The position numbers and the translations under genes were made by a program. Below the pieces are notes generated by a model. It had not been told where the DNA came from and did no database searches. It saw nothing but the letters and a program-made list of their open reading frames with translations. Positions 19,625 to 45,854 of a stretch of DNA of 64,000 bases are shown here, piece by piece. Position 1 is the stretch's first letter; each line of letters begins with the position of its first letter. The DNA is from Acidobacteriota bacterium (GTDB lineage Bacteria > Acidobacteriota > UBA6911 > RPQK01 > JAJDTT01). The stretch lies in assembly GCA_965209055.1 (NCBI GenBank), contig OZ242374.1, positions 352,001 to 416,000 on the forward strand. Reading direction: 5' to 3'.

Positions 19625-19632
19625 GCCGGAAG

Positions 19633-22605: not shown

Positions 22606-24363
22606 CTACGGCTTCCACGGTATTCCGGAGCCTTCCTGGAGGGTGACGAGGCGATCCGCTTCCACCCCTTCCCAGATCTCGCTGCCACCCCCGGGCCAGT
22701 GGACGATGACGGCCTCGACCTCTTTGTCCCGGCCCAAGCCGAAGTGCACCCGATGGTCGTTGGCGTTCAGATAGCTGCCGTCGGTATGTGCGCGGCGCCA
22801 TAACGTCCTCTGACCCTGGCGCTGCACTCCCACCCTCGCTCCGACCCCGTCGCGGTTGCTTTGCACCCCCTGCAGTCGAACCTGCAGCCAGTGGTGCCGC
22901 GACCCGGTCCCGTTCAACAGCAACCGCACCGGTCCGTTGTTGTTGGTGATCAGAATGTCCACGTCACCGTCGTTGTCCATGTCGCCGAAGGCCGCTCCCC
23001 GGCTCACTTCCGACAGTTGCAGGGCCGGTCCCGCCTCGGCAGTCGTTTCCCGATAGTTGCCCTTCCCGTCGTTGTGGAACAGTTGGTTGATTTGATCGTA
23101 GGCATAGTCGGCCGGTTCGGCCAGCCGCATCATTCGCACCGCGCCATTGGCCATGAACAGATCCAGGTGCCCGTCATTGTCGTAGTCGAACCACCGGGTG
23201 CCGAAACCGGTGAAATTGTGAACCCGGGTCAATCCGAAACGGCTGGTCTGGTCGGAAAAGCCGCCGGCGCCATCGTTCAGGTAGAGGGTGTGGGTCTCTT
23301 CCGTCAGATGGGTCATGAAGAGGTCTTCGCTGCCGTCGTTGTTGAAATCGGCGGCCGTGACCCCCATGCTGGCTTCCGCCTGGCCGTCGACGTTGAACGC
23401 CGTCCCTGAGAACAACCCCGCCTCTTCGAAGCTTCCGTTTCCCCGGTTGAGCCAGAGTTGATTGGGAGTCTTGTCATTGGCGACGTAGATATCCGTCCAA
23501 CCGTCAACATTGAAGTCCGCGCAAACGACGCCCAATCCATTGCCGAACGCGGCCGCCAGGCCCGCCTGCTCCGTCACGTCGACAAATCGGCGCCCACCGT
23601 CGTTGCGAAAGAACCGGTCCGGCAAAGGGGAATAGACTGTGGGGAAACAGTAATCCCTGGCGCCCGCGGTTCTGCAAACCTGGTTTCCCGCGACCGTGAA
23701 CCCAACGTAGTTTGTCAGGAACAAATCTAGGTCGCCGTCGCGATCGTAGTCCAGGAAGGCGGCGCTGGTGGTCCAGCGGGAATCCTCGGCTCCCACTCCC
23801 TTCATTGGGGTGAAGGTCCCGTCTCCGTTGTTGCGATACAGGAGATTGGGTCCGTAGTTGGTCAGGTAGAGGTCGAGGTCTCCGTCGTTGTCGTAGTCCC
23901 CAACCGCGGCCCCCATCCCGTAGCTGACCGAGTCGACTCCGGCTTGGGCGGTGACCTCCCTGAACTTGAGACTTCCGCCGGGGATCAGATCGTTTCGATA
24001 CAACCGGTGCCCCGGTTTCCACCCGGGATCTGGAGGAAACCAGGACTGGGAGGGAGTCTTGGCCGGTTCCAGCATCGCGCCTTGCACCAGGTAGACATCC
24101 AGGTCGCCGTCGCCGTCGTAGTCCAACAGGGCGGCTCCGGAGCCCACGATTTCAGGCAGGTAAAACTTGCCGCCGGCCCCGTTGAAGTGCTGGAAATCCA
24201 GCCCCACCCGGGAAGCCGCTTCCGAGAAAAGGGGAGTTGGAAGCGATGGGTCTTGCGCCACAAGAGCCGGCCAGGCCGAGGCTCCCCAGAGGAGTCCGGC
24301 CAGCAGCCGGCCGGCGGGCCGTCGGCAGGACCGCCGGGCCGGAGAGGCAGCCACCTTTCTCAT
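22606..24363 (-). CDS. CRTAC1-family FG-GAP/VCBS propeller with ASPIC/UnbV domain (copy A)
   Basis: Repeated D.DGDGDLD Ca-binding motifs, SNRDGVGARV, GSYL..VHFGLG..V.WP.G, signal peptide. Confidence 0.92.
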   Translation of the reverse strand: MRKVAASPARRSCRRPAGRLLAGLLWGASAWPALVAQDPSLPTPLFSEAASRVGLDFQHFNGAGGKFYLPEIVGSGAALLDYDGDGDLDVYLVQGAMLEPAKTPSQSWFPPDPGWKPGHRLYRNDLIPGGSLKFREVTAQAGVDSVSYGMGAAVGDYDNDGDLDLYLTNYGPNLLYRNNGDGTFTPMKGVGAEDSRWTTSAAFLDYDRDGDLDLFLTNYVGFTVAGNQVCRTAGARDYCFPTVYSPLPDRFFRNDGGRRFVDVTEQAGLAAAFGNGLGVVCADFNVDGWTDIYVANDKTPNQLWLNRGNGSFEEAGLFSGTAFNVDGQAEASMGVTAADFNNDGSEDLFMTHLTEETHTLYLNDGAGGFSDQTSRFGLTRVHNFTGFGTRWFDYDNDGHLDLFMANGAVRMMRLAEPADYAYDQINQLFHNDGKGNYRETTAEAGPALQLSEVSRGAAFGDMDNDGDVDILITNNNGPVRLLLNGTGSRHHWLQVRLQGVQSNRDGVGARVGVQRQGQRTLWRRAHTDGSYLNANDHRVHFGLGRDKEVEAVIVHWPGGGSEIWEGVEADRLVTLQEGSGIPWKP

Positions 24364-25769
24364 GGCCGCTTGCCCGCCTGCCGCAACCTTTGCAGGAACT
24401 TCCCGACATCGGCCGCCAGTTCACGCTTCCCCATGGAAAAGGCCTTTGCCTGGGCCTTTACGGCAGAGTCGACGGCTTTATCAATCTTGCCCAGACGGGC
24501 GTAGCTGTGAGCCAGTACGTAATGGCGCACCGGGGTTCCCTCATCCTCTACCGTCAGGGTCTTCAGGAAGTGACCGATCGCCTCCGCATTCCTCCCTTGT
24601 TTCTGAAGCAGCAGCCCCAACTGAAAATGGGCATCCATGAATTGCGACCGATTCTCGATCGCCAGGCGAAAGCGTTCTTCCGCCTCTCTCACCTGACCGC
24701 CGTTTGCCAGATTGGCGCCCAATAGGTAATGCGACTCGGCCCGGTAAGGATCGAGCTCCAGAGCTTTCCGGAACGCTGCTTCAGCGTCCCGATCACGCTT
24801 CTGTAGCGTGCGTAGAATACCCAGATTGTGGTGGATTTCGTGAAGCCGGGGATCGAGTTTGTGCGCCGCCCGGTAATGTTCTTCCGCTTTGACCAGGTCT
24901 CCCAGGGTGAGAAAGCTGAAGAACAGGTTGGCGTGCGCCCCGGCATGCCGGGGGTCTTCTTTCAGGGCCCGCTCAAACTCGCCAAGTGCTTCAGAGATTC
25001 GTGCTTTCCGCTGAAATCCCAGTCCTCGCAGGTAGTGGTATTCCGCCTTTGATTGAAGCCGGCGGAGCGAATCCAACAGAGGGTCCACCAGGGGAGGCGG
25101 ATCCCCCTGAACCCGTTGAAAAAGGAGTAGATGCCGGCGAGCCTTCTCTTTTTCTCCCAGGTTGCGGTACACGGTGCCGAGCCCATAGTGGGCGGCGCCA
25201 AAATCGGGCGCCAACCGGGAAGCGGTCCGGTAGCTCTTCAAGGCTGCCCGAGTCTCGCCTCGAGCAAACTGGACCCGGCCGAGTCCGTAATGGGCACGGG
25301 CAGAATCGGGATGTTGCCGAACCACCTGGCGATAAATCTTTCCGCTCTCATCCCAGTCGCCCACCGTCCGAAGCAGTTTGCCGAGTCTCAGTTGCGCCGG
25401 AAGATAGTCCGGGGCCAATTCGACGGCTCTCCGAAAGGCGGGAATCGCTTCTGCCTCCCGGCCGGTCGCGGTCATGGCGACGCCCAGATAGTACGGCCAG
25501 CGAAAGTCGGATGGTTCGATGGACCCGACCCGCCGGTAAAACGTGGAGGCGAGTTCATATTGTCCGAAACCGTGCAGGAGCATTGCCAGCCGGCCATTGA
25601 GTTCGCTATCCGCCGGGTTTGCCAGAGCTTCCCGGTAGGTTTCAAGCAGCCGTTGACGGTCACGGGGCTCGAAAGCGGCCAGCAACCGTTCGGCCAATTG
25701 GGGCGGTGGAGGCGATTCCGGGGTCGCGGCAGCGATGAAAACCAAACTCAAGGTCCAAAGCGGCAGCAT
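24360..25769 (-). CDS. Secreted TPR protein (family A, copy 1), coupled to CRTAC1-A
   Basis: FRWPYYLG, AHYGLG, AHANL and AHFQLG TPRs. ATGA overlap with the downstream gene. Confidence 0.9.
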   Translation of the reverse strand: MLPLWTLSLVFIAAATPESPPPPQLAERLLAAFEPRDRQRLLETYREALANPADSELNGRLAMLLHGFGQYELASTFYRRVGSIEPSDFRWPYYLGVAMTATGREAEAIPAFRRAVELAPDYLPAQLRLGKLLRTVGDWDESGKIYRQVVRQHPDSARAHYGLGRVQFARGETRAALKSYRTASRLAPDFGAAHYGLGTVYRNLGEKEKARRHLLLFQRVQGDPPPLVDPLLDSLRRLQSKAEYHYLRGLGFQRKARISEALGEFERALKEDPRHAGAHANLFFSFLTLGDLVKAEEHYRAAHKLDPRLHEIHHNLGILRTLQKRDRDAEAAFRKALELDPYRAESHYLLGANLANGGQVREAEERFRLAIENRSQFMDAHFQLGLLLQKQGRNAEAIGHFLKTLTVEDEGTPVRHYVLAHSYARLGKIDKAVDSAVKAQAKAFSMGKRELAADVGKFLQRLRQAGKRP

Positions 25770-25952: not shown

Positions 25953-27581
25953 ATGTCAAGAACCTTCGCAGGTTCTCCCGTGAGTGGCAGGTTCCTTCTG
26001 CTTGCCTTGTTTCTGGTTCTGCTCCCGGTCCAGGCCAAAGAGAAGAAGCGGGACGACCGGGCCGTTCTCCAGGAAGAGCAGGAGGACTACTTCAAGAAGT
26101 GGCTCAAGGAGGACGTCGTCTACATCATCACCGATGAGGAGCGGGGCGTGTTCAACGGCCTGGGCACCATGGACGAGAAGGAACAGTTCATCGAGCAGTT
26201 CTGGCGCCGGCGCGACCCGGATGCGAGAACGGCCGTCAACGAATACAAGGAAGAACATTACCGTCGTATTGCCTACGCCAACGACCATTTCTTCAGCGCC
26301 AAGGCCGGGTGGAGAACAGATCGCGGCAGGACCTACATCCTCTGGGGCCCGCCCGACGACCGCGAAATGCGTCCCTCGGGCGGCCGCTATGAAAGGCTGA
26401 TCTACGAGGGCGGGGGAACGACGACGACCTATCCCTTCGAGCGCTGGATCTATCGCCACATTCCAGGGATCGGGTCCGGTGTCGAGTTGGAATTCGTCGA
26501 CCAGTCAGGTACCGGTGAATACCGTCTGGCGCTGGGTATGGAGGAGAAAGATGCGCTCCTCCACAGCGAAGGCGGATTGACCATGGCAGAACAACTCGGG
26601 ATGATGGACAAGTCCGAACGCCCTTATTTTACTCCATCCAATGCCCATAACCCCTTTATTCAGGGGATCACCGGCATGCGCGCAAAAGATCGTCCTTTCG
26701 CTCGCATGGCGCGCTACTTCGATGTTCAGAAGGCTCCCGATATTCGGTACAAAGACCTCCAGAAGCTGGTCGACAGCAGAGTCTTGTATCACAGCCTGCC
26801 GTTCGACCTCAGCAGCAACGCGATCAAACTGGACGATGCCAGGGCGCTGGTTGCCATTACCGTGGAGGTGCGCAACCAGGATCTGACATTTCAGGAGAAA
26901 TCCGGCATCCGCCAGGCCCACCTTCGACTCTATGGACGCGTGCTGAATGTGAGCGGCCGAATGCTGACCGAGTTTGAGCAGGAACTGGCCATTGACTACG
27001 CAGCCGAAGAATTCGAAACCAGCTTGACGGAACGGTCCGTTTATCAGAATCAGATCGCAGTCCCGGCTGGCCTCTACAAGCTGACTCTGATCCTTGAAGA
27101 CTTGCACGGTGAAAGGATGGGTTCAACGGAGACTCGTATACCGGCTCCCAGATATGACGAAAAACAACTTGCTGCCTCTCTGATTCTGGCCCAGTCGATT
27201 CAGCAGCTTGGTGCGGTGCCGGATACGATCCGGATGTTCGTGCTCGGCGACCTGAAAGTGATCCCCAGTGTCAGCCGTACGTTTGTCTCTGACGCTTCAC
27301 TGCCGGTCTATCTTCAGGTGTACAACCTGCAGGTGGATCAGGCCCTGGACAGACCGGATCCTGAAATCGTCTACGAAATCAGCAGGAAGGGGAAAGTCGT
27401 CAAGACCGTCTCCGGCATTGGCGGCCGGAACCTTGCCTATTTCTCACCGGAACGCGCGGTTTTCGTTCGACATCTTGACTTGGAGGGACTCCCGCTTGGG
27501 GACTATTCGTTGCGAGTGGCCGTACGTGACGGCATTTCCGGAGAATCGTCCGTAACCCGCGATCGATTCAAGATTCAATGA
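25953..27581 (+). CDS. GWxTD domain protein
   Basis: KKWLKEDVVYIITDEER, EQFIEQFW.RRDP, EEHYRRIAYAN, GWRTDRGRTYI.WGPPD. GAGGT RBS before ATG 25953. Confidence 0.93.
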   Translation: MSRTFAGSPVSGRFLLLALFLVLLPVQAKEKKRDDRAVLQEEQEDYFKKWLKEDVVYIITDEERGVFNGLGTMDEKEQFIEQFWRRRDPDARTAVNEYKEEHYRRIAYANDHFFSAKAGWRTDRGRTYILWGPPDDREMRPSGGRYERLIYEGGGTTTTYPFERWIYRHIPGIGSGVELEFVDQSGTGEYRLALGMEEKDALLHSEGGLTMAEQLGMMDKSERPYFTPSNAHNPFIQGITGMRAKDRPFARMARYFDVQKAPDIRYKDLQKLVDSRVLYHSLPFDLSSNAIKLDDARALVAITVEVRNQDLTFQEKSGIRQAHLRLYGRVLNVSGRMLTEFEQELAIDYAAEEFETSLTERSVYQNQIAVPAGLYKLTLILEDLHGERMGSTETRIPAPRYDEKQLAASLILAQSIQQLGAVPDTIRMFVLGDLKVIPSVSRTFVSDASLPVYLQVYNLQVDQALDRPDPEIVYEISRKGKVVKTVSGIGGRNLAYFSPERAVFVRHLDLEGLPLGDYSLRVAVRDGISGESSVTRDRFKIQ

Positions 27582-27588
27582 CAAACCG

Positions 27589-29934
27589 GTGTCTGGCAAA
27601 GTACTGATCGGAACCGGCGTCGCCGGGTGGGCCATTCTGGTATTTGCGGCGGCGCTTCCGGCGCTCATTCCGCACGGTTCGACCGCGCAGACGACACCTC
27701 TCTCCACAGCCGAGCCTCGTCACGCCGAAGGCTATGCCGGGCAAGAGACGTGCGCGAGCTGCCACAGGGAAATCACCGACTCCTACCAAAGGGTTGCGAT
27801 GTCACGGTCGTTCTCTCGACCCACGCCTGCGAACACGATTGAGGACTACGAAAAAAACAACAGTTTTTTCCACGAAAAGTCGGAATTTTATTACACCATG
27901 CTCAAGCGCGGCGGGCGCTATTTTCAGCGCCGCAGCCTCAAGAACAAGCAGGGGGAGCCCGTTCACGTTCATGAAGAGGAGATCACCTACATCCTGGGTT
28001 CGGGTGATCATGCCCGCTCCTATTTTCATCATCATCCCAATGGCGTGATCACCAAGTTGCCCGTCACCTGGTACACACAGGAACAACGCTGGGGAATGTC
28101 TCCCGGCTACGACGTCCCGGATCATCTCGACTTCACCCGCCCCATACCGCAGGGGTGTTTTTTTTGCCACACGTCCTACCCTCGGCTCATCCCGCAAAGG
28201 TCCGAGGACGAGGTCTACTTCCCCAACTCTCTTCCGGCCGGCATCGGTTGCGAGCGTTGCCACGGACCGGGCAGCGAACATGTCCGCCTGGTCTTGGAGA
28301 AAGCTCCCGCGGAAGAGTTCAAGAAGGCGATCTACCACCCCGGGCTGGATTCGAAACAGGCTCAGAGAGATCTCTGTTACCAATGCCACGTGGAGACCAA
28401 CGTCTACAGCGTGGCAACCAGAGTCATCGTGCCGGGCCGGGAAACCTTCTCCTACCGGCCGGGAGAAACTTTTTCCGATTACGCAGTCCGCTTCAAGCTT
28501 CGGGGCGTGGACGACAAGAGCAAACAATTCGACATGGTGAAGCAGCATGGCGATCTGATGGAAGAATCGAAATGCTTTCAAGCCAGCAGCGGCGCCATGA
28601 CCTGTACCACCTGCCATGATCCCCACGTGAAGGTCTCTCATGAAGAGAGCGCCGATTTCTACCGCGCCCGCTGCCTTTCCTGCCATGTCTCGAGTGAGCT
28701 CAACAGCACCCACAAACCTGTCGAAGTCGAGGGGAACTGCGCCGCTTGCCACATGCCCTCGGGAGACCCGACCGGCGACAGCCCCGATATTTCTTTCGAG
28801 GAGCTTCGGCGGGGAAATCAACGCACCCGTCACATCGTTTTTACCAACCATAGAATCGGTATCCACTCCAGAGGAGAAGTGCCCGCCGATCTGGGTCAGA
28901 ACACCCTCTACGAACTGGAACCTTCAACCGAATCGCTGTCCGAGACCGAGAATCTATTTTTTATGGGAGCGGCATTCCTGGATGCGACTCCGGCGGAACT
29001 GAGCGAACGCCCCAAACAGTTGGAAACCGGAATGGGGTTGTTGGAGCAGTACACAGAGAGGGCCGGCGGCCGCTACCGGACCGAGGCCTTCGCCCTGTTG
29101 GGGAAAGGCTATGAAGTTTCGGGGGAAATCGATCGGGCGGTGGCAGCTTACGAGCGCTCGCTGGAAGGGCGGCCGGGCCAGTTGCTGCCTATGAGCAATC
29201 TGGCTTTGATCTACGCCAATCGGGGAGACCACGACCGCGGCAAGTCTTACTTCTCCCGAGTGCTGGAGCGATTCCCGGAAAATGTTCCGGCACTTCACGG
29301 GCTGGGCGTCCTGGCTGCCGGGGCCGGAAAAAAACAGGAGGCGATCGGGTACTTCGAAAGAGCGACCCAGTTGTTTCCGCTTGCCGTCTTTTCCCACTAT
29401 CACCTGGCCCAAATGTACTTGCGCGACCAGGAGTGGGACAAAGCCTTTGCGGCGATCATGCGCACCCTGGCTGTTTCTCCAAGATTCGCTCCGGCATACC
29501 TGGACCTGGGAAATCTTCACGCCCTCCAGAACCGGTTGTCCCCGGCCGGAGAAGCCTTCGAGCGGTTACTGACGTTGGATCCGAACAACGAAACCGCCTA
29601 CAACGCGGTTTCCATCGTCGCGGCGCGGCAGGGCGCTTTCGAGCGGGCTATTGAAGTGCTGGAAAAGGCCGTCGAAAAAGGTGTTGCCGCGGAGGCAACC
29701 TTCCTGAATCTCGGTCGTTTCCGGGCTCAATCCGGTCATCTGGAGAGATCCGTCGAGTCGCTGCAACAGGCGTTGTCCCTGAACCCTCAAAGCGAAGAAG
29801 TTCTCTTGACCTTGGCGATGGTGCACTCGTTGAAGGACGAGCGTGCATTGGCGAGACAATTTCTCCAGCGGCTGCTCAAGCTGAATCCGGATCACGAGCA
29901 GGCGCGCCTCCTATTGCAGAGGCTTGGACATTAG
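27589..29934 (+). CDS. Multiheme c-type cytochrome (7 CxxCH) fused to C-terminal TPR array
   Basis: CASCH, CFFCH, CERCH, CYQCH, CTTCH, CLSCH, CAACH, then TPRs. Signal peptide. Confidence 0.9.
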   Translation: MSGKVLIGTGVAGWAILVFAAALPALIPHGSTAQTTPLSTAEPRHAEGYAGQETCASCHREITDSYQRVAMSRSFSRPTPANTIEDYEKNNSFFHEKSEFYYTMLKRGGRYFQRRSLKNKQGEPVHVHEEEITYILGSGDHARSYFHHHPNGVITKLPVTWYTQEQRWGMSPGYDVPDHLDFTRPIPQGCFFCHTSYPRLIPQRSEDEVYFPNSLPAGIGCERCHGPGSEHVRLVLEKAPAEEFKKAIYHPGLDSKQAQRDLCYQCHVETNVYSVATRVIVPGRETFSYRPGETFSDYAVRFKLRGVDDKSKQFDMVKQHGDLMEESKCFQASSGAMTCTTCHDPHVKVSHEESADFYRARCLSCHVSSELNSTHKPVEVEGNCAACHMPSGDPTGDSPDISFEELRRGNQRTRHIVFTNHRIGIHSRGEVPADLGQNTLYELEPSTESLSETENLFFMGAAFLDATPAELSERPKQLETGMGLLEQYTERAGGRYRTEAFALLGKGYEVSGEIDRAVAAYERSLEGRPGQLLPMSNLALIYANRGDHDRGKSYFSRVLERFPENVPALHGLGVLAAGAGKKQEAIGYFERATQLFPLAVFSHYHLAQMYLRDQEWDKAFAAIMRTLAVSPRFAPAYLDLGNLHALQNRLSPAGEAFERLLTLDPNNETAYNAVSIVAARQGAFERAIEVLEKAVEKGVAAEATFLNLGRFRAQSGHLERSVESLQQALSLNPQSEEVLLTLAMVHSLKDERALARQFLQRLLKLNPDHEQARLLLQRLGH

Positions 29935-29966
29935 TTGAGCTCGGTATTGGCTCTATCCCGTTACCT

Positions 29967-30743
29967 TTAACTGCCATGCCCTCTCAGGCGGGCGGCCGAG
30001 GTGTCGATGGCACGCGCCAAGTGCGCCCAATCCACCCCCATGAGCACCCATTGGATCCCCTTTTCCGTCCACTCCATAAGCGCTTCCGGATCGTCGGCCA
30101 GACCGATTCCGGGAAAGACGCCGGCTTGATGTGCCGTGGTCACGACCGTTTCAACGGCTCTCTGCACCTCCGGATGCTGAGGATTTCCCATATGCCCCAT
30201 GGAACCGGCCAAGTCGTTGACTCCGATCATGATCGCGGTGAGTCCCGGCACGCGAACCATTTCGTCGATCACGTTGACGGCGTCGATGTGCTCGATCTGC
30301 ACGATGCAGACGATTTCCCGGTTGGCTCGCCGGCAGTACTCTGCGTCCCCGATGCGACCGTATCGAATCGGCCGTCGTGGACCGAATCCCCGCTCTCCCT
30401 CCGGCGGATACAAGCAGGCCGAGACGGCTAGCTGAACGTCTTCGACCGTGCGGACGAGCGGGACCACAATTCCGTCTGCCCCGATGTCCAACACCGGCTT
30501 GATCAAGACGGCATCATTCCAGGCAACACGCACCAACGCCGCGGCGTCGCTACCCTTGGTCGCCATGATGTGACCCTGAACCGTTTCCAGGGAATGACCA
30601 TTGTGCTCCATGTCGATGAAGGCAAAATCGAGCGTGTGAGAGATCAGCTCGGTCACGGTGGGATCCGAAAAGCTCACTCCGCAACCAAGCGGGATCTGTC
30701 CGCTTTCCAGCTTGGCCCTGAACGTGTTGGCGTTCTCCATCAA
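29967..30743 (-). CDS. HpcH/HpaI class II aldolase
   Basis: DFAFIDMEH, LVRV, LDIGADGIVVP, YPPEGERG, QIE, IGVNDL. Confidence 0.93.
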   Translation of the reverse strand: MMENANTFRAKLESGQIPLGCGVSFSDPTVTELISHTLDFAFIDMEHNGHSLETVQGHIMATKGSDAAALVRVAWNDAVLIKPVLDIGADGIVVPLVRTVEDVQLAVSACLYPPEGERGFGPRRPIRYGRIGDAEYCRRANREIVCIVQIEHIDAVNVIDEMVRVPGLTAIMIGVNDLAGSMGHMGNPQHPEVQRAVETVVTTAHQAGVFPGIGLADDPEALMEWTEKGIQWVLMGVDWAHLARAIDTSAARLRGHGS

Positions 30744-31744: not shown

Positions 31745-31763
31745 TGTTGGAATCTCCTATTGG

Positions 31764-32747: not shown

Positions 32748-32751
32748 CTTC

Positions 32752-37756: not shown

Positions 37757-37770
37757 CGAACAACCATCTG

Positions 37771-37811
37771 CTCAGTCCCGCCGCTTGTTGAAACGAGCCG
37801 GCGGGACTGAG
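37771..37811 (+). terminator. Strong hairpin after the TBDR (terminator or mRNA-stabilising stem)
   Basis: CTCAGTCCCGCCG ... CGGCGGGACTGAG 13-bp perfect arms, no clear U-tract. Confidence 0.6.
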
Positions 37812-37851
37812 CTGGTCCCTCTCGAATTGACCGACCCAGGCCCGACTTGAA

Positions 37852-39216
37852 TTGTTGTACCCGTTCGCGGCCGGATCCTCCGGCAGGCGCACTTTGGTGA
37901 CTTCAAACCAGCGCCGTGGGAAACCAGGTCATCTTTCCCGTTTTGATAGAGTTGGGGACAAGGTGGGTTGTCCGCATGCAGGCTCATTGATCCGGATTCC
38001 GGTTCTTTTCCTCTTCGTTCAACCGGTTGCCGCCCCACTGCCGCTTCCGCCGGAACAACCGGCATCTTCCGTGCCGGCGCCTTCCGGCAACAATCGCTCT
38101 CCTTACGTGGGCGCCTCGACCTGTGGGAAATGCCATCAATCTATCCATGAAAGCTTTCGCCAAACCACCCACTACCTCACCTCCCAGCTTCCTCGGGCGA
38201 ATTCCATACTCGGCAGTTTTGAGCCCGCTCAGGCTTTGCTTCGCACCGGCAATCCCGATCTCTGGTACGAGATGCGCGCTTCGGAAGACGGTTTCTTTCA
38301 GACCGCGTGGTCCCGGGAACAAGGTCGAATTGTCCCGCGGACCGAGCGCATGGACATCGTCGTCGGATCGGGGAAAATGGGCCAGACTTATCTCTACTGG
38401 CGAGGCAGCAAACTCTTTCAGTTGCCGGTTTCCTATTTCACCGAGGCGCAACGTTGGATCAACAGCCCCGGCTATCCGGACGGGCAGGCGTACTTCGACC
38501 GCCCGGTTAATCCGCGTTGCCTGGAATGCCATGCCACCTTCTTTGAGGTCGTCAGCGAAGAAGACCCGATGCGGCCCTATCTGAGCAATGTCTACAGCCG
38601 GAACAATCACTTGCTGGGAGTCACCTGTGAAAGATGTCATGGCCCGGGAGGTTCTCATTCGAAAAACCCGTTGGAAAGGTCCAGCTCCGGCGCAACCGCC
38701 GATATCGTCCATCCCGGAAAACTCGAGCGGGAACTCCAGATGACACTCTGCGCCCAGTGTCACTCGGGTCACCTGGTCCCGCGCGACGGTCCCTTTTCCT
38801 TCAGGCCTGGCCAGGGGCCTGAGGCGTTCATTGCCGTGGAGAGCCTTCGGGCCAGGAACAGCGGAGGCGTGCACACCACCAATCAACCCGATCGTCTTCG
38901 CCGCTCCCGGTGTTTTCAGGAGAGTGGGTCGCTGACCTGCAATAGTTGCCATGATCCGCACCACCTGGAGCGGGCAAACCTGCAACTGTTTTCCCGGCGT
39001 TGCATGACCTGCCACGAGCCGCAGGTCTGTGGGATGGCGGCAACCTTGGGGGATGCCATCGAAGGCAACTGTATCGACTGTCATATGCCGGTACAGCGGG
39101 ACCTGGGAACGCCAATGGCGACGGCCAGCGGGTTTGAGGCTCCGCGGATGCGGGATCACAAGATCGCCGTCTATTCGGCTGTCGCTAAACGTCTTTTGAA
39201 GCAGTTCCAGCAATAA
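37852..39216 (+). CDS. Multiheme c-type cytochrome (7 CxxCH), paralog of the heme domain of 27589-29934; true start probably downstream (~37963)
   Basis: CGKCH, CLECH, CERCH, CAQCH, CNSCH, CMTCH, CIDCH. Shared GSG...QTYL..LP.SY...W..SPGY and SRCF motifs. Confidence 0.9.
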   Translation: MLYPFAAGSSGRRTLVTSNQRRGKPGHLSRFDRVGDKVGCPHAGSLIRIPVLFLFVQPVAAPLPLPPEQPASSVPAPSGNNRSPYVGASTCGKCHQSIHESFRQTTHYLTSQLPRANSILGSFEPAQALLRTGNPDLWYEMRASEDGFFQTAWSREQGRIVPRTERMDIVVGSGKMGQTYLYWRGSKLFQLPVSYFTEAQRWINSPGYPDGQAYFDRPVNPRCLECHATFFEVVSEEDPMRPYLSNVYSRNNHLLGVTCERCHGPGGSHSKNPLERSSSGATADIVHPGKLERELQMTLCAQCHSGHLVPRDGPFSFRPGQGPEAFIAVESLRARNSGGVHTTNQPDRLRRSRCFQESGSLTCNSCHDPHHLERANLQLFSRRCMTCHEPQVCGMAATLGDAIEGNCIDCHMPVQRDLGTPMATASGFEAPRMRDHKIAVYSAVAKRLLKQFQQ

Positions 39217-39259
39217 GACAGTTCAAGGAGGAGACGATTTCCAATCGCCCATGTGGCAA

Positions 39260-39315
39260 GAATCGGCGGTTAGGAAACCGCCGCCCCGAATCGGCGGTTA
39301 GGAAACCGCCGCCCC
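39260..39315. repeat. Two exact tandem 28-bp REP-like units, preceded by a degenerate opposite-orientation unit (~39230-39250)
   Basis: GAATCGGCGGTTAGGAAACCGCCGCCCC x2, each with a GGCGGTT/AACCGCC stem, between convergent genes. Confidence 0.8.
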
Positions 39316-39364
39316 CGCCCCCCGTCCGCCGGACCGGGCCGGTGGGGGAGCTACTGAAATAGTT

Positions 39365-40801
39365 CTAACCAGGGGGACCACCAAGTCCCAGGCGGGTTTT
39401 CTGAACTGCTCGCTTCGACAATTTCCTGGCGCCCAGTTCGCGCCTTTGTTGATTGAGGCGACGGACCTGGGCCAATGTCTGGCGTTCTTTTTCCTTGTTC
39501 CCCAACTTTCGATAAGCAATCGAGAGTTGATAGAAGGCCGGAGTCGCTTCCGGGTCCAGTTGAACCGCTTTTTCCAACTCTCGAACGGCCGAGGCGGGGT
39601 CGCTTCTTTTCAAATACAGCTTGCCCAGGCTGGTGTGCGCAAGGGCCACGGGAGATGATCCTTCCCAAAAAAAGAAATCCGGTTGCAACGCAGTGGCCTG
39701 TTTCAGGTGCTCCACGGCTTTCGACTCAACCTGACTTCCGGGCGCAACCCCGCTCAAGACAGCCAGCTCTCCCAGAAGATAATGTCCATAAAAGCTGAGA
39801 GGGGTTCGTCGCAGCACCTCTTGCAAGACAGTGGAAGCCTCGTCAAGTTGCCGGGTTTCCATCAGCACCAGAGCCAGACCCACTCGCGGCATGTCAAGGT
39901 CCGGCCGTAGCTCGGCAGCCTTTCGGTACTCCGCTTCGGCCATCCCGTACTGAGCCAGGAAATATCGCAAATGAGCATGTTTAAAACGCAAACTGTAAGA
40001 ATGCGGGAGTTGTTCCAGACCCCGCTCCACCAACTCAACAGCGGGAAGCAGCTTGTTTTCCTCGGCCAGGCGCTCGGCAGCGGCCAGGTAGTTGATTTCA
40101 TCTCCAGGGTCGCGGCCGATCGCTTGCCGCAGCATGTCGACTGGCGCCTCTTGTTTCGCCAGCAACAATAGATCGAGCATTCGTTCCTGTTTCTGAGCCG
40201 AGGGAGGATCTGAGACATTTGAAATGGTCCAGCCGCGTCGCGATTCCTCGAGCGTCGCCGCGCACTCTTCGAACTTTCTGAGACGGTATTGCGACAAGGC
40301 CAGGTTGTAGGCCACGGACAGCGGGTCCGGATGCCCTGCCCGGGCCAGCTTGAAATGCCTTTCGGCAGCCGGGAATTCACCGAAGCGAGCCAGAATCAAA
40401 CCCGCCTCGAACTGCGCCATGAAGTGGTCTTCGGGCAATCGTTCCACGGCTTCAAGGGCAGCCTGGTTGTCCTTGGTTTGCAGGAGCGACTCAGTGTAGT
40501 TGAGAAGCAGAATCGGGTTCTTGGAGAGCTTTGAAGCACTTTCCCGGAAGCGTTTTGCAGCCTCCCCGTACTCTTTCAAACTGAAGGCGATTTGCCCAAG
40601 AACCGCCTGCAAATCTTCGTTGTCCGGATCCTTTCGAGCCAGCTCCAACAGTATTTTACGGGCCTCCGGCAACCGTCCTGTTTGGAGAAGCTCCGAAACG
40701 GTTTTCTGCCCTGACGATTGTGACCATCCGAAGCAGAAGAAAATAAAAAGAACAGGAATTCGTGTCAGGTGTGACAAGCGTGGCCGGGTAGGCAACACCA
40801 T
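39365..40801 (-). CDS. Secreted TPR protein (family B, copy 2)
   Basis: Collinear with 32752-34134: LGQIAF, NY.E.LL.TK, AQFEAG, YNLA, HYLLG, SLGKLYLKR, YQLSIAYRK. Confidence 0.88.
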   Translation of the reverse strand: MVLPTRPRLSHLTRIPVLFIFFCFGWSQSSGQKTVSELLQTGRLPEARKILLELARKDPDNEDLQAVLGQIAFSLKEYGEAAKRFRESASKLSKNPILLLNYTESLLQTKDNQAALEAVERLPEDHFMAQFEAGLILARFGEFPAAERHFKLARAGHPDPLSVAYNLALSQYRLRKFEECAATLEESRRGWTISNVSDPPSAQKQERMLDLLLLAKQEAPVDMLRQAIGRDPGDEINYLAAAERLAEENKLLPAVELVERGLEQLPHSYSLRFKHAHLRYFLAQYGMAEAEYRKAAELRPDLDMPRVGLALVLMETRQLDEASTVLQEVLRRTPLSFYGHYLLGELAVLSGVAPGSQVESKAVEHLKQATALQPDFFFWEGSSPVALAHTSLGKLYLKRSDPASAVRELEKAVQLDPEATPAFYQLSIAYRKLGNKEKERQTLAQVRRLNQQRRELGARKLSKRAVQKTRLGLGGPPG

Positions 40802-40950
40802 CCACCAATGCTAGCAGAGGTGTGAAGAGGGCGGATAGACGAACCAAAGAATCCCGCCAGTCTTATTCCTGTTGCTCGGGGGCCACACCTTCCCTGGCCG
40901 GTTCCTGGCCTCTCTTGATCGAGTGTTCAACGCGGAATACAATTCGGACA

Positions 40951-42360
40951 ATGGGCCGTTGGGCCGCGCCTGCCGTGTTTTTTCTCCTGGTTTCCTCAGA
41001 CCTTCAGGCCCAGGATCTGCCAGCCATTCCTCAACTCCTGCCCCGGCAATGGGAGATTCTCGACCCGAAATTGCAGCAGGCCTACGCCAAGGTGTTGGAG
41101 TTTCCAGACGATGCGGAAGCCAACGGCCGCTTGGCAATGACCTTCCATGCCTTCGACCAATTTGAGCTGGCAGCCGTTTTTTATCAAAGAAGCGATTTGC
41201 TGCAATCGGGAACTTTTCGTTGGCCGTACTACCTGGGCGTCGTGCGTGGAGCCCAGGGGAAGACCAGCGAGGCTATCAGCATGCTGCGCAGGGCGAGGGC
41301 GGTTGACCCGGACTATCTCCCCGCCCGCGTCCGATTGGCCGAACTTCTGCTTGCGACCCACAATCAGGAGGAAGCAAAAAACATCTACGAGCAAGTGCTG
41401 AAGCAAGATCCCGACTGTTCGCAAGCGCACTACGGATTGGGCCGGATTCAGTCCTCCACGGGCCAATGGCAAGCCGCAATTCAAAGCTATCGCCGAGCCT
41501 TGTCATTGTCCCAGGGTTTCGGGGCGGCCCACTACGCTTTGGCAACAGCCTATCGACAACTGGGAATGCCGGATGGATTTCAAGAGAACATACGGCTCTT
41601 TCAACAGAATCGGGGGAGAAGTCCGCAGTTGGATGATCCTCTGCTCAAGACGGTGGCCGCCCTGCGGTCCCACGCAGAATATTACTTCAAGGAGGGTCTT
41701 CGGCTTCAAGAGGAAGGCCGGGTCGAACCGGCCATCGTTGAATATCAACGGGCCCTGAAGGAAGATCCGGAGTACGCCCGGGCTCACGCCAATCTGTGCC
41801 TGGCCCAACTGCTTTTGAAACGGTTGGACCAAGCCGAGCGCCACTGTCAATTGGCTCTTGAGCTTGATCCGGATATTCACGAGATTCGCCACAACCTGGG
41901 ACTGCTCCGCCGGCTTCAGGGTAGAAACCGGGAGGCTGAGCAGGCCTTTCGAGAAGCATTGGAAATTGATCCTTTTTACGCCGAGTCCCACTATCTTCTG
42001 GCGGCGGTTTTGGCCCAGGAGGGGCGTCTAAAGGGTGCGGAGCACCATTTTCGGCAGGCGATCGAGAACCAGCCGGACTACCGCACGGCCCATTTTCAGT
42101 TGGGTCTCCTGCTTCAGAAGCAGGGGAGGGATGCGGAAGCCGTCCCCCATTTCCTGAAGACCCTGACCGAAGAGGATGAGAGAACTCCCGTTTACCTGTA
42201 CCTGTTGGCCCACAGCTATGGCCGCCTGGGCGACCTGGATAAAGCCGTTGAATCTGCCGAGCAGGCCCGGGAAAAGGCGCTAGCCGTGGGGAAGGGCGAA
42301 TTGGCGGCTGACCTGGCGAGGTTCCTGCAGCAGTTGCGGCAAGCGGGCAAACGGCCATGA
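40951..42360 (+). CDS. Secreted TPR protein (family A, copy 2), coupled to CRTAC1-B
   Basis: Collinear with 24360-25769 and ends LRQAGKRP as it does. ATGA overlap with the next gene. Confidence 0.9.
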   Translation: MGRWAAPAVFFLLVSSDLQAQDLPAIPQLLPRQWEILDPKLQQAYAKVLEFPDDAEANGRLAMTFHAFDQFELAAVFYQRSDLLQSGTFRWPYYLGVVRGAQGKTSEAISMLRRARAVDPDYLPARVRLAELLLATHNQEEAKNIYEQVLKQDPDCSQAHYGLGRIQSSTGQWQAAIQSYRRALSLSQGFGAAHYALATAYRQLGMPDGFQENIRLFQQNRGRSPQLDDPLLKTVAALRSHAEYYFKEGLRLQEEGRVEPAIVEYQRALKEDPEYARAHANLCLAQLLLKRLDQAERHCQLALELDPDIHEIRHNLGLLRRLQGRNREAEQAFREALEIDPFYAESHYLLAAVLAQEGRLKGAEHHFRQAIENQPDYRTAHFQLGLLLQKQGRDAEAVPHFLKTLTEEDERTPVYLYLLAHSYGRLGDLDKAVESAEQAREKALAVGKGELAADLARFLQQLRQAGKRP

Positions 42361-44117
42361 AAGAGGTGGCGGGCCTTCCGTTCCGGGGCGCTTGTCCACG
42401 GCCCGCGGGCAGGCTGCTGGCCATCCTGCTTTGTGGAGCCCTTGCCGGGCCTTCTCTCGGGGCTCAAGACCCGTCGACGCCAACTCCCCTTTTCTCGGAA
42501 GTGGCCTCCCAGGTGGGGCTGGATTTCAAGCACTTCAATGGAGCCGGCGGAAACTTTTACATCCCTGAAATCGTGGGCTCGGGAGCCGCCCTGTTGGACT
42601 ACGACGGCGACGGCGACCTGGACGTCTACCTGGTGCAAGGTGCGATGCTGGAACCGGGCAAGACTCCCTCCGAGTCCTGGTTTCCTCCAGGTCCCGGGTG
42701 GAGGCCGGGGCACCGGTTGTATCGAAACGAGCTGATCCCCGGGGGAAGTCTCAAGTTCAGGGAGGTGACCGCCCAAGCCGGGGTCGACTCGGTCAGCTAC
42801 GGGATGGGAGTGGCGGTCGGAGATTACGACAACGATGGAGACCTTGACCTTTACCTGACCAACTACGGACCCAATCTCTTGTATCGCAACAACGGAGACG
42901 CGACCTTCACCCCAATGAAGGGAATGGGAGCCGAGGATTCCCGCTGGACCACCAGCGCCGCCTTTCTGGACTACGACCGCGACGGCGACCTCGACTTGTT
43001 CGTGACGAATTATGGAAATTTCACCGTCAAGGGAAACAATCCCTGCCACAACAAGATGGGCCTCCGGGATTATTGCGGTCCCAGTGGCTATCGGCCCATC
43101 CCGGATCGTCTCTTCCGGAACGAGAGGGGCCGGCAATTTGTTGACGTGACAGAGGATGCCGGGTTGGGGGCCGCCTTTGGAACCGGGTTGGGAGTCATTT
43201 GCGCCGATTTCAACGCTGACGGGTGGACGGATATCTACGTCGCCAATGACAGAACTCCCAATCAGCTCTGGCTCAATCGGGGTAACGGAAGCTTTGAAGA
43301 GGCGGGGTTGTTCTCAGGGACGGCGTTCAACGTCGACGGCCATGCCGAAGCCAGCATGGGGGTCACGGCCGCCGATTTCAACAACGACGGCAGCGAAGAC
43401 CTCTTCATGACCCATCTGACGGAAGAGACCCATACCCTCTATCTGAACGATGGCGCCGGCGGTTTTTCCGACCAGACCAGCCGTTTCGGATTGACCCGGG
43501 TTGAAAATTACACCGGTTTCGGCACCCAGTGGTTCGACTACGACAATGACGGGCACCTGGATCTGTTCATGGCCAACGGTGCGGTGCGAATGACGCGGCT
43601 GGCCGAACCGGCCGATTATGCCTACGATCAGATCAACCAACTGTTCCATAACGAGGGAGACGGGAACTATCGGGAAACGACCGCCGAGGCGGGAGCGGCG
43701 CTGCAACTGTCGGAAGTGAGCCGCGGCGCGGCCTTCGGCGACATGGACAACGACGGTGACGTGGACATTCTGGTCACCAACAACAACGGGCCGGTGCGGT
43801 TGCTGTTGAACGGGACCGGGTCGCGGCATCACTGGCTGCAGGTTCGACTGCAGGGGGTGCAAAGCAACCGCTACGGGGTCGGAGCGAGGGTGGGAGTGCA
43901 GCGCCAGGGTCAGAGGACGTTATGGCGCCGCGCACATACCGACGGCAGCTATCTGAACGCCAACGACCATCGGGTGCACTTCGGCTTGGGCCGGAACCAG
44001 GAGGTCGAGGCCGTCATCGTCCACTGGCCCGGCGGCGGCAGCGAGAGTTGGGAAGGGGTGGAAGCGGACCGGTTGGTCACCCTCCAGGAAGGCTCCGGAA
44101 GGCCGTGGAAGCCGTAG
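42357..44117 (+). CDS. CRTAC1/ASPIC-UnbV protein (copy B)
   Basis: Near-identical to 22606-24363, in inverted orientation. Confidence 0.92.
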   Translation: MKEVAGLPFRGACPRPAGRLLAILLCGALAGPSLGAQDPSTPTPLFSEVASQVGLDFKHFNGAGGNFYIPEIVGSGAALLDYDGDGDLDVYLVQGAMLEPGKTPSESWFPPGPGWRPGHRLYRNELIPGGSLKFREVTAQAGVDSVSYGMGVAVGDYDNDGDLDLYLTNYGPNLLYRNNGDATFTPMKGMGAEDSRWTTSAAFLDYDRDGDLDLFVTNYGNFTVKGNNPCHNKMGLRDYCGPSGYRPIPDRLFRNERGRQFVDVTEDAGLGAAFGTGLGVICADFNADGWTDIYVANDRTPNQLWLNRGNGSFEEAGLFSGTAFNVDGHAEASMGVTAADFNNDGSEDLFMTHLTEETHTLYLNDGAGGFSDQTSRFGLTRVENYTGFGTQWFDYDNDGHLDLFMANGAVRMTRLAEPADYAYDQINQLFHNEGDGNYRETTAEAGAALQLSEVSRGAAFGDMDNDGDVDILVTNNNGPVRLLLNGTGSRHHWLQVRLQGVQSNRYGVGARVGVQRQGQRTLWRRAHTDGSYLNANDHRVHFGLGRNQEVEAVIVHWPGGGSESWEGVEADRLVTLQEGSGRPWKP

Positions 44118-44168
44118 ACAGCAAATCAGACGCTATCGCGATTTCTTGGGGCGCTTCACTGTGGATCG

Positions 44169-45854
44169 TCATCGGATCCCGGTTCCTTCACGGACGGAGA
44201 TGACTCGGCCTGCCTGGACGTCTTCAAACCTCTGCCGGCTGCCGCTGGGCCACTGGATCTCGATCCACTCGGCCCGCCTCTCCTTGCCGAGGCCGAAATG
44301 CACACGCAGTCCATTACTCGAGTAGTAACTGGAGGCGCTCCGCACCTCATCGGTTTGGATTCGTCCTCCGGCTGCCACTTGAATCCGCGCGCCAATGGCA
44401 CTGCGGTTGCTTCCTTCACCTTCCAGTTCCAGGATGAGCCAGTTGTTCTCTGAAGCGCTTTCGTTGACCAGCAAAGAAGGGGTGTCATTCAGGTTGACTG
44501 CGACGATATCCAGATCCCCGTCACCATCCAGATCCTCGAATGCGACGCCTCGCCCGGCCGATTTCGCGGCAATGGCGTCTCCGGCTTGATTGGAGGCGTT
44601 TCCAAAGCTGCCGTCACCTTGATTCCGGTAGACCAATCGCTGCTGCCGATAGGTGATTTCAGAAGGGTGGCGGTCCACTTCGGGATAAACGTGCCCGCTG
44701 GCGATAAACAGGTCTTTCCAACCGTCGTTGTCAAAATCGACCAATCCCGTGCCCCAACTCAAGTATTGGGTGTCTTTGCCCAGCTTGGCCAGATAAGTCG
44801 TGTCGGTGAATGTGGAGTTTCCGTCGTTGCGGTATAGGGTGGACGTGTCGTCGGAGAAATTGGTCACCAACAGATCCAGGTGTCCGTCCAGATCGTAATC
44901 CGCAGCCGCGACTCCCATGCCGGCCTGCTCTCTTCCGTTGTCGCTGAGGGCCACGCCCGAGATCATTCCCACATCCTCAAACGTGCCATCGCGGTTGTTC
45001 CGGTAAAGGATGTTGGGGGTGGTGTCGCAGGCGACATAAAGGTCCGTCCAGCCGTCCTCGTCAAAATCGAGCGTGATCGGCATGAGACAATAAAACCCTT
45101 CGGCACGGGTGATGCCGCTGGCCGCGGTGACGTCGCTGAAAGTGCCGTCTCCATTGTTGCGAAACATGATATTGGCCGATGGCTTGAGCCCCAGCGGACC
45201 ACACATGACGGCGATGCCCCTCCACATGCAGTTGGCGCCGGAGCCGGGCTCGTACCGGGTGGCGTCGGCATAGTCCACATAATTGGCTACGAAAAGGTCC
45301 AGGTCGGCGTCGCGGTCATAATCCAGGAAGGTGCAGCCGGCGTTCCAACGCCGCTGGCCGCCGATCCGAGAGCTCTGCGAGATGTCTTCGAAGCTTCCGT
45401 TTCCCCGATTGCGGTAGAGCACGATCTCCCCGTAGTAGGTCACGGCAAGATCGGTCCATCCATCGTTGTCGATATCTCCGACGCAGACCGCCTGTCCCCA
45501 GCCCGAGCGCTTGAGGCCGGAAGGCGCCGTCACGTCTGAAAAACGGCCGTTTCCGAGATTTCGGTACAACACGTTGGAGGGAGGATCGCCGGAGGCGCCG
45601 TCCAGTCTGGAGCCGTTGACCAGGAAGATGTCGATCCGTCCGTCCCGGTCGTAATCGAAGGTGGCGGCTCCCGTCCCGGTCGTTTCCAGAATGTAGCGTT
45701 GCGACGCCACGCCTCCATAGACGACCGGAATATTCAGCCCGGACTCCCGGCTTCGATCGACGAACTGGATTGGGGCCTGGGCTGGAAGGAGGGTGTTGCC
45801 GGCCACGAGTCCAAGGAGCAACGTCGCGACGATTCGAAGCGTAGTCGTCATCAT
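44169..45854 (-). CDS. CRTAC1/ASPIC-UnbV protein (divergent copy C)
   Basis: YILETTGTG..FDYDRDG, GMGVAAADYD.DG, SNRSAIGARI, VHFGLG..I.WPSG. Confidence 0.92.
   Translation of the reverse strand: MMTTTLRIVATLLLGLVAGNTLLPAQAPIQFVDRSRESGLNIPVVYGGVASQRYILETTGTGAATFDYDRDGRIDIFLVNGSRLDGASGDPPSNVLYRNLGNGRFSDVTAPSGLKRSGWGQAVCVGDIDNDGWTDLAVTYYGEIVLYRNRGNGSFEDISQSSRIGGQRRWNAGCTFLDYDRDADLDLFVANYVDYADATRYEPGSGANCMWRGIAVMCGPLGLKPSANIMFRNNGDGTFSDVTAASGITRAEGFYCLMPITLDFDEDGWTDLYVACDTTPNILYRNNRDGTFEDVGMISGVALSDNGREQAGMGVAAADYDLDGHLDLLVTNFSDDTSTLYRNDGNSTFTDTTYLAKLGKDTQYLSWGTGLVDFDNDGWKDLFIASGHVYPEVDRHPSEITYRQQRLVYRNQGDGSFGNASNQAGDAIAAKSAGRGVAFEDLDGDGDLDIVAVNLNDTPSLLVNESASENNWLILELEGEGSNRSAIGARIQVAAGGRIQTDEVRSASSYYSSNGLRVHFGLGKERRAEWIEIQWPSGSRQRFEDVQAGRVISVREGTGIR

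Follow-up and report, generated by a model that had tools for sequence, protein, structure and literature searches.

Genetic linkage of heptaheme cytochromes, CRTAC1-like propellers, TPR proteins and TonB-dependent receptors in several bacterial phyla, with natural fusions of the cytochrome

We analysed a stretch of 64,000 nucleotides from an Acidobacteriota bacterium (contig OZ242374.1, positions 352,001 to 416,000; hereafter the window), in which 14 consecutive genes (g1 to g14, Table 1) encode, among others, heptaheme cytochromes, propeller proteins of the CRTAC1 type, tetratricopeptide repeat (TPR) proteins and a TonB-dependent receptor of the Oar type. These four families proved to be genetically linked well beyond background in several phyla, and the linkage, the fusions and the sugar-utilisation context of the module they form were all observed. 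We read the locus as a duplicated and rearranged copy of a conserved, facultative envelope module for the acquisition of carbohydrate-type substrates, and give this reading a probability of about 50%.

Linkage and fusions of the four families

The cytochrome was taken as the anchor of a neighbourhood survey because it is the rarest of the families. A scan of an alignment of 20 cytochrome members (A1) against one genome per GTDB species gave 608 pattern matches, among which 476 were confirmed relatives. The best 80 of these 476 yielded 79 loci, with up to 10 kb per side, in which 1141 open reading frames (ORFs) were called mechanically. Two loci without a called cytochrome ORF (L043 and L067) were dropped, leaving 77 anchored loci. 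The survey counts come from this one scan with one anchor, in which orthologues of the g4 type (cytochrome-TPR) and the g3-g4 pair were not specifically sampled.

A CRTAC-like gene adjoined the cytochrome in 19 of the 77 anchored loci, and was found within three genes of it in 26. By phylum, the latter amounted to 8 of 30 loci in Acidobacteriota, 6 of 21 in Planctomycetota, 7 of 16 in Bacteroidota, 3 of 3 in Gemmatimonadota, 1 of 2 in Latescibacterota and 1 of 1 in Verrucomicrobiota (0 of 4 where the phylum was unclear). A TPR gene nearby, or a TPR domain fused to the anchor, was present in 27 of 77 loci, and 19 of 77 had a TonB-dependent receptor, either Oar-type or SusC-like, no more than four genes away. 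All three partner families were more frequent among genes at most three positions away from the cytochrome than among genes at least six positions away: 28/420 versus 6/377 for CRTAC (Fisher p 3e-4), 28/420 versus 7/377 for TPR (p 8e-4), and 20/420 versus 7/377 for the receptor, SusC-like proteins included (p 0.03). Linkage of the heptaheme cytochrome to CRTAC-like, TPR and TonB-dependent receptor genes across phyla, for which an earlier note on this DNA, made from the sequence alone, had suggested a neighbourhood analysis, was thereby confirmed.

The most complete arrangement was a co-directional cassette, in the order receptor, TPR, CRTAC and cytochrome, with gaps of 2–167 nt, found in five acidobacterial species (L010, L018, L019, L020 and L036). 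The Planctomycetes L050–L053 had the order TPR, cytochrome, CRTAC. Among the 19 adjacent cytochrome/CRTAC pairs, 15 were co-directional, and their gaps were mostly −4 to 41 nt. In the surveyed loci, a TPR gene stood directly upstream of 11 of the 36 CRTAC ORFs of at least 500 aa, as it does in the window, and a same-strand TPR gene adjoined 11 of the 17 Oar-type receptor ORFs.

Natural fusions of the cytochrome were sought among long homologues of g10 (719–2050 aa), of which 254 reached E≤1e-10 among 4563 candidates; the best 120 of the 254 were listed and their domains mapped. Among these 120 proteins, 101 were cytochrome/TPR fusions, 95 with the cytochrome first (the architecture of g4, a fusion that the earlier note had not described) and 6 with the TPR domain first. 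A further 18 were cytochrome/CRTAC fusions, 16 with the cytochrome first and 2 with the CRTAC part first, and one was a cytochrome alone. The 18 CRTAC fusions are 821–959 aa long, with seven CxxCH motifs in 15 of them, eight in one and six in two, and several of their clusters stand for many member sequences, on long contigs. That fusions exist in both orders is the strongest evidence presented here for a joint action, within a single compartment, of the cytochrome and the propeller, and of the cytochrome and TPR repeats.

A FastTree phylogeny of 81 cytochromes showed that the family largely follows phylum. The cytochrome g10 was nearest to two Latescibacterota sequences, at 50% identity (support 84). 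Two contigs stood out on the tree. One, labelled as a Citrobacter freundii metagenome-assembled genome (among L078, L050 and also L079), carries a cytochrome nested inside Chitinophaga sequences, and one labelled Ca. Kuenenia stuttgartiensis carries a cytochrome that groups with Planctomycetales L051–L053; both are probably mis-binned.

Sugar-utilisation context and the gene position of SusD

In Bacteroidota (L054, L056 and L065, and partly L049, L058 and L066) the gene order was ECF sigma factor, FecR, SusC, SusD, Laminin_G_3 protein, cytochrome, CRTAC-like protein (about 1094 aa), PF10091 protein, and glycoside hydrolases (GH) of families GH30 and GH3. The PF10091 protein matched the solved endo-beta-1,2-glucanase 5gzh (E 4.7e-131) and is GH144-like, and the GH30 protein matched 5ngk (E 9e-84). 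Both the cytochrome and the CRTAC-like protein of these loci have lipoprotein-like N-termini. One of the loci, L066, belongs to the cultured Flavivirga amylovorans KACC 14157. Similarly, the acidobacterial four-gene cassettes are preceded by genes for a glucokinase and a GntR/UTRA regulator. Elsewhere the neighbours of the cytochrome included GH20, GH123, GH127, GH43, GH5, GH18, GH16, alpha-amylase-family and apiosidase-like proteins, LacI, GntR and IclR regulators and sugar kinases, together with many unrelated genes. In two Acidoferrales, the neighbours were Tricorn-like proteases of about 1200 aa (PD40, PDZ_Tricorn and Peptidase_S41), directly upstream of the cytochrome in one (L008:6353–9961) and two ORFs upstream in the other (L012:6132–9671), which indicates that not all cytochrome contexts are carbohydrate-related. 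Oxidoreductases of the GFO/IDH/MocA family beside the cytochrome (L015, L016 and L030) were considered as periplasmic redox partners and rejected, as their N-termini carry no signal or Tat peptide.

The earlier note had proposed a machine analogous to the polysaccharide utilisation loci (PULs) of Bacteroidota, in which CRTAC1 propellers would replace SusD. Its first half gained support, as the cytochrome-CRTAC pair occurs inside real SusC/SusD loci with GH144-like, GH30 and GH3 genes. Its second half had to be abandoned, since the CRTAC-like protein co-occurs with SusD in the Bacteroidota loci and therefore does not replace it. The locus in the window shares with Bacteroidota PULs a TonB-dependent receptor at its centre, with exported accessory proteins and sugar-catabolic genes alongside, and the pair of its relatives is co-directional inside the six SusC/SusD loci named above. 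In contrast to a PUL, the window locus has no SusD (no SusD_RagB or SusD-like Pfam match) and no glycoside hydrolase, its receptor is of the Oar type, and it is divided into six transcription units.

Outside Bacteroidota, a TPR protein may be said to hold the gene position of SusD, as a positional analogy only. TPR proteins as homologues of SusD were rejected by an hhalign comparison of 10 receptor-adjacent TPR proteins (alignment A5) with 7 SusD proteins (A6), which gave a probability of 3.7%. Four of the window TPR proteins exceed the gathering cut-off (35.2) of TPR_Slam, namely g2 (51 bits), g8 (46.8), g11 (47.8) and g12 (72.3), which is weak evidence because TPR families cross-match freely.

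Among open-access papers and preprints, none was found that describes such a connection between multiheme cytochromes and PULs, or that joins CRTAC1, TonB and cytochrome or, in a relevant manner, FG-GAP, SusD and cytochrome c; PMC9250108 makes no mention of heptaheme, TPR or Acidobacteria. No description of the receptor-TPR-CRTAC-cytochrome module was thus found in this body of literature, from which work in subscription journals could be missing.

The locus in the window and its surroundings

The 14 genes were defined from mechanical ORF lists, Pfam and NCBIfam scans and motif counts, with over-extended starts corrected. They and the arms of a duplication are given in Table 1.

Table 1. Features of the locus at 22606–45854, in coordinates of the window.
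Feature	Position	Strand	Description
g1	22606..24363	-	CRTAC1-like propeller, FG-GAP_3 x7 and UnbV_ASPIC, 585 aa; 88% protein identity to g13
g2	24360..25769	-	Exported TPR protein, 469 aa; ATGA overlap with g1; 54% identity to g12
g3	25953..27581	+	GWxTD-domain protein, 542 aa from ATG 25953
g4	27589..29934	+	Heptaheme cytochrome, 7 CxxCH (aa 55-388), fused to C-terminal TPR domain (aa ~500-780, ~280 residues)
g5	29967..30743	-	HpcH/HpaI-family aldolase, 2-keto-3-deoxy-acid-type; no signal peptide
g6	30857..31744	-	Xylose-isomerase-like TIM barrel (IolE-like, E 1.8e-44, under NCBIfam cut-off); no signal peptide
g7	31764..32747	-	Exported 327-aa protein; TPR matches under Pfam cut-offs, best 23.7 bits versus 27.8
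g8	32752..34134	-	Exported TPR protein, 460 aa from ATG 34134; 44% identity to g11; divergent from receptor gene g9
g9	34394..37756	+	Oar-type TonB-dependent receptor (CarboxypepD_reg and OMP_b-brl_4); start ATG 34394 behind AGGAGA
g10	37963..39216	+	Heptaheme cytochrome, 7 CxxCH, ~417 aa from GTG 37963; OcwA/MccA-like predicted fold
g11	39365..40801	-	Exported TPR protein, 478 aa
g12	40951..42360	+	Exported TPR protein, 469 aa from ATG 40951; ATGA overlap with g13
g13	42357..44117	+	CRTAC1-like propeller, 586 aa; PDB sequence match to human CRTAC1 9etn (E 1.7e-21)
g14	44169..45854	-	CRTAC1-like propeller, 561 aa; 38% identity to g1 and g13
Left arm, inverted segmental duplication	22606..24857		80-91% complementary to partner arm 41863-44117
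Right arm, inverted segmental duplication	41863..44117		Partner of 22606-24857

The inventory of the earlier note was confirmed. Signal-peptide-like N-termini, judged by eye after start correction, were seen in 12 of the 14 proteins, the exceptions being g5 and g6, in agreement with its count of apparently exported products. Pfam and NCBIfam scans and motif counts likewise agreed with it on one Oar-type receptor, two heptaheme cytochromes, three CRTAC1-like propellers and one GWxTD protein. Of its five TPR proteins, four are clear (g2, g8, g11 and g12), and g7 is a weak case, with TPR matches under the cut-off only. The tight coupling it had described, namely the ATGA overlaps of g2/g1 and g12/g13 and the 7-nt gap between g3 and g4, was read directly in the sequence, and no domain of SusD, of an MtrB-like porin or of a respiratory oxidoreductase was detected by Pfam and NCBIfam scans of the 14 proteins, as it had also said.

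Six transcription units of alternating orientation make up the locus: g2-g1, g3-g4, g8-g7-g6-g5, g9-g10, g11 alone, and g12-g13, with g14 alone. The g2-g1 and g12-g13 pairs are the two copies of an inverted segmental duplication, which inflates the count of TPR-CRTAC pairs, and g8 and g11 are paralogues. The g8-g7-g6-g5 unit joins two exported TPR-type proteins to the TIM-barrel enzyme and the aldolase. All four families, receptor, TPR, CRTAC and cytochrome, are thus present within 23 kb, and the order of the co-directional cassette is not kept. A promoter and terminator scan of 29000–46500 found 4 and 20 sites, versus 3.8 and 18.8 expected from shuffled sequences, and is therefore uninformative. 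No Rfam family matched at gathering score in the whole window, so that no riboswitch or other RNA gives a clue to the substrate of the receptor. The G+C content was 0.57–0.59 over most of the cluster (26000–42000), compared with 0.60–0.66 in 1–26 kb and 54–64 kb, a difference that might stem from horizontal acquisition or simply from the make-up of exported repeat proteins.

The receptor g9 matches CarboxypepD_reg (E 1.2e-15) and then OMP_b-brl_4 (PF25183, E 4.5e-197) over profile positions 1–838 of 838. No match of g9 to Plug (PF07715) was found at E≤0.01, aa 133–263 being covered by no domain match, and a sequence search of the PDB with g9 gave no match.

The GWxTD protein g3 is well assigned (TIGR04514, 113.2 bits for a cut-off of 28; PF20094, 55.8 bits for a cut-off of 26.9). 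The earlier note had counted it in the system. In the survey, a GWxTD gene was found within three genes of the cytochrome in 0 of 77 loci, and at position −4 in 1 of 77: g3 is a local passenger beside g4 and not a core part. In its confident AlphaFold2 (AF2) model (pLDDT 90.7, pTM 0.67), a long helix at the N-terminus is accompanied by an alpha/beta GWxTD domain and a pair of beta-sandwich domains. Foldseek was tried as a route to its function and rejected, as RbmA and transglutaminase C-terminal barrels match the beta-sandwiches only (TM 0.16–0.18) and no function follows. No PDB sequence matched g3, and no paper containing "GWxTD" was found among open-access papers and preprints. The family is large: its representative clusters number 9293 at E≤1e-3, and 813 reach E≤1e-30.

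Several genes around the locus deserve mention. At 47138–48823 (-), a 561-aa protein combines two Glyoxalase/extradiol-dioxygenase domains (catechol 2,3-dioxygenase-like, E 6e-43, under cut-off) with a C-terminal DUF6081, and its gene overlaps by 4 nt that of a xylose-isomerase-like TIM barrel (48820–49713, -). Downstream of these two lie a weak GH127-like gene, a zinc-dependent alcohol dehydrogenase and two short-chain dehydrogenases/reductases, and the whole looks like a separate catabolic island. A single 586-aa ORF at 396–2156 (-) has a NuoE-like N-terminus (aa 19–146) and a NuoF-like body (aa 181–582), with scores under the equivalog cut-offs. At 10728–12824 (-), a cytochrome P450 domain (aa ~250–690, pentalenene-oxygenase-like, far under cut-off) follows an N-terminal extension of about 240 aa without a domain assignment; the ORF start may be over-extended. 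Finally, ORFs of more than 550 aa occupy opposite strands at 17906–19645 (-) and 17951–19624 (+); only the plus strand gives a match, a weak one to GHL10 (E 1.7e-6), so that the gene call at 17906–19645 is ambiguous.

Cytochrome, propeller and competing readings

All seven CxxCH motifs are invariant in 94 aligned cytochrome sequences, as are five further His. Five invariant candidates for distal ligands of seven hemes leave room for non-His or open coordination. The AF2 model of the cytochrome (pLDDT 85.1, pTM 0.83) had as its best solved fold match OcwA (6i5b, E 3.8e-8, TM 0.49), followed by 6qvm, an S-layer cytochrome with eleven hemes, and 4rkm, the sulfite reductase MccA; no more than five fold matches reached E≤0.001. 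OcwA was also the best match by sequence (E 1.2e-7). The predicted structure thus resembles multiheme reductases of the OcwA/MccA type, the fold match being significant but moderate. According to the paper describing it, OcwA has a heme packing like that of NrfA, c554 and MccA, two five-coordinate hemes, and a beta-sheet domain common to OcwA and MccA (PMC6703420). With this group the window-type cytochrome shares CxxCH-bound hemes and, in its model, a beta-sheet segment (about aa 85–160). It differs in having seven hemes rather than nine, eight or five, in its identity of 15–17% with a TM of 0.49 only, and in belonging to a family of diderm phyla with signal peptides or lipoprotein-like N-termini.

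The propellers g1, g13 and g14 match FG-GAP_3 (E 2e-48 to 5e-54) and UnbV_ASPIC (E 2e-15 to 3e-19), all over cut-offs. With the CRTAC1/ASPIC/UnbV (enediyne E4) family they share the FG-GAP propeller and the C-terminal UnbV_ASPIC domain, and g13 matches human CRTAC1. What sets them apart is their tie to a heptaheme cytochrome, single-chain fusions included. Homologues carry public names such as "CRTAC1 family protein" or "enediyne biosynthesis protein E4", and the name UnbV originates from the enediyne cassette; no assigned function was found for any bacterial member of the CRTAC1/ASPIC/UnbV family. The nearest relatives of g14 are acidobacterial CRTAC-like proteins, at 45–46% identity. Among the residues invariant in the CRTAC-like alignment, Asp, Gly and Asn from Ca-type loops predominate, alongside one Cys pair. 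Terriglobales CRTAC-like proteins (L010:8157–9869 and L036:8127–9839, alignment A3) carry an N-terminal SRRxFLR Tat-like motif, which suggests export in the folded state; g1, g13 and g14 are without it. A complex prediction for the adjacent CRTAC-like protein and cytochrome of L010, made from alignments A3 and A4 without the signal peptides, scored 0.00 against a mark of 0.32 and, run without controls, speaks neither for nor against binding.

Couplings of a Ca- and carbohydrate-binding beta-propeller to an electron-carrying cytochrome module are known from PQQ sugar dehydrogenases and from fungal AA12-AA8 proteins, which offer an analogy for the pair in this coupling. They differ in that there is no evidence for binding of PQQ or another redox cofactor by FG-GAP/UnbV_ASPIC propellers, no test aimed at cofactors having been made. 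Another propeller-plus-cytochrome combination was noticed two ORFs downstream of a planctomycete heptaheme cytochrome (L039:11964–13826), where a 620-aa protein joins a seven-bladed lactonase/YncE-type propeller to a di-heme CCP_MauG domain. In addition, a 2025 paper (PMC12758564) reports that in non-anammox clades I–III an FG-GAP gene of the CRTAC1 family is flanked by HZS-like genes for multiheme proteins, some of which have c554-type domains. These clusters are a second, independent association of the CRTAC1 family with c-type cytochromes, with other partners (HZS alpha-like and beta-gamma-like) and with ABC substrate-binding proteins as neighbours, not TonB-dependent receptors.

Under the reading as a module for carbohydrate-type substrates, cytochrome and propeller would function together as a unit that resides in the periplasm or at the outer membrane. 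Its tether to the receptor would be the TPR proteins, which stand in the gene position held by SusD in Bacteroidota, and the unit would perform a redox step on, or linked to, the substrate handled by the receptor. In the window, the products might then be fed to cytoplasmic enzymes such as the TIM-barrel enzyme g6 and the aldolase g5. A stronger proposal is that the heptaheme cytochrome and the CRTAC1-like propeller, a single polypeptide in some organisms, constitute a new class of envelope redox enzyme, which would oxidise or reduce glycans, or substrates bound to them, at the outer membrane with the help of the TonB-dependent receptor and its TPR (or SusD) partner; we hold this to be possible and rather doubtful.

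A number of observations weigh against the carbohydrate reading. As to the locus itself, no GH, polysaccharide lyase or carbohydrate esterase domain was found by Pfam scan in 22606–45854, weak GH-like matches lying outside it only (GHL10 at 61963–63849 and a GH127 middle domain at 49822–51801). The 14 genes are not one operon, given their six alternating units, and the window cytochromes adjoin no CRTAC gene, g10 following the receptor g9 after a gap of 206 nt. As to the survey, a GH-family gene is among the annotated neighbours in 17 of 79 loci, a count for which there is no null. All three partners accompany the cytochrome in only 5 of 77 loci, all of them acidobacterial, and none of the three partner families is near it in 36 of 77. 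On the cytochrome tree, the linked state requires at least 15 gains or losses. Moreover, many acidobacterial loci are close relatives, so that loci are not independent, and ORF labels are coarse (phmmer against the window's own proteins, the remainder clustered), with phylum labels taken from record titles. Finally, the CRTAC-like alignment shows no invariant His and no other obvious redox-metal site. It follows from the loci without partners and from the changes on the tree that the partnership is facultative; the latter also suggest that it is old but often gained or lost.

An alternative reading concerns iron or extracellular electron transfer: OcwA-like cytochromes would reduce Fe(III) in mineral, chelated or humic-bound form, or else another extracellular acceptor, the receptor would import the released metal or chelate, and propellers and TPR proteins would serve as scaffold. 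TonB-dependent receptors are indeed classical importers of iron chelates, and the Bacteroidota loci contain ECF sigma and FecR regulators, but ECF/FecR genes with SusC are also common in glycan loci. Weak sequence likenesses, all under cut-off, also speak for this reading: the cytochrome matches chain 6r2q_A (E 2.4e-4), and the DmsE and GSU2203 decaheme models scored on the window proteins, far under their cut-offs. As in porin-cytochrome conduits (MtrAB/PCC), a multiheme cytochrome gene (g10) adjoins an outer-membrane beta-barrel gene (g9). Unlike in these conduits, however, the barrel is a TonB-dependent receptor (OMP_b-brl_4) and not an MtrB-like porin, a receptor barrel with a plug does not conduct electrons, and g10 is a heptaheme protein. 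The likeness to OcwA, which its authors call a cell-surface terminal reductase (PMC6703420), favours this reading; the neighbouring genes do not. Those annotated encode GntR/LacI regulators and sugar kinases beside SusD and glycoside hydrolases, and no siderophore, Fur or iron ABC transporter gene was among the neighbours examined. We consider it unlikely.

According to another alternative, the Oar-type receptor and the TPR proteins form a secretion device, whose cargo, the CRTAC-like propellers and the cytochromes, is exposed on the cell surface. A precedent would be the Myxococcus xanthus receptor Oar, which is reported to be needed for secretion of the protease PopC (PMC6434023), and the scores over cut-off of g2, g8, g11 and g12 on TPR_Slam, the TPR of surface-lipoprotein translocators, likewise favour this alternative. 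The adjacency of TPR genes to 11 of 17 receptor ORFs and the surface location of the protein with the nearest solved cytochrome fold would also fit. Against this stand the weakness of the TPR_Slam scores among freely cross-matching TPR families and the company of SusC/SusD, which are importers, kept by the Bacteroidota pair. As for the Tat-like RRxFLR of some acidobacterial CRTAC-like proteins, it shows export to the periplasm only. Such a device seems quite improbable.

A last alternative is that there is no system at all, the locus being a random accumulation of exported proteins that belong to very large families of paralogues, enlarged by local inverted duplication. The families are indeed huge: 4562 cytochrome clusters reached E≤1e-5 among 8000 candidates scored, and all 8000 scored CRTAC candidates reached E≤1e-10. 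In the Solibacter genome paper (PMC3174227), ASPIC/UnbV appears only as one of the paralogue families that were analysed, as do TonB-receptor genes. The duplication, the six transcription units, the loci without partners and the unlinked GWxTD gene would agree with this alternative, but it is very improbable because of the enrichment of three families near the cytochrome and the fusions, to which the same gene order in five species and linkage in six phyla can be added.

The reading as a facultative module for carbohydrate-type substrates bears on families of wide occurrence. Acidobacteriota, Planctomycetota, Gemmatimonadota and Bacteroidota carry very many genes for CRTAC1-like proteins, TPR proteins and Oar-type receptors without an assigned role, and the conserved tie of one of these families to an OcwA/MccA-like cytochrome, fusions included, is a concrete and testable handle on their function. 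This tie occurs within SusC/SusD loci whose substrates are of the beta-glucan type. If cytochrome and propeller were indeed a glycan redox enzyme, multiheme cytochromes would take a working part in polysaccharide utilisation across six phyla or more, and the bacterial ASPIC/UnbV family would receive its first function. Redox chemistry in glycan acquisition, if true, would represent a cytochrome-driven step in the carbon turnover of soil and water, unlike routes of the lytic polysaccharide monooxygenase type or purely hydrolytic ones, and it would account for the high frequency of non-respiratory multiheme cytochromes among aerobic heterotrophs.

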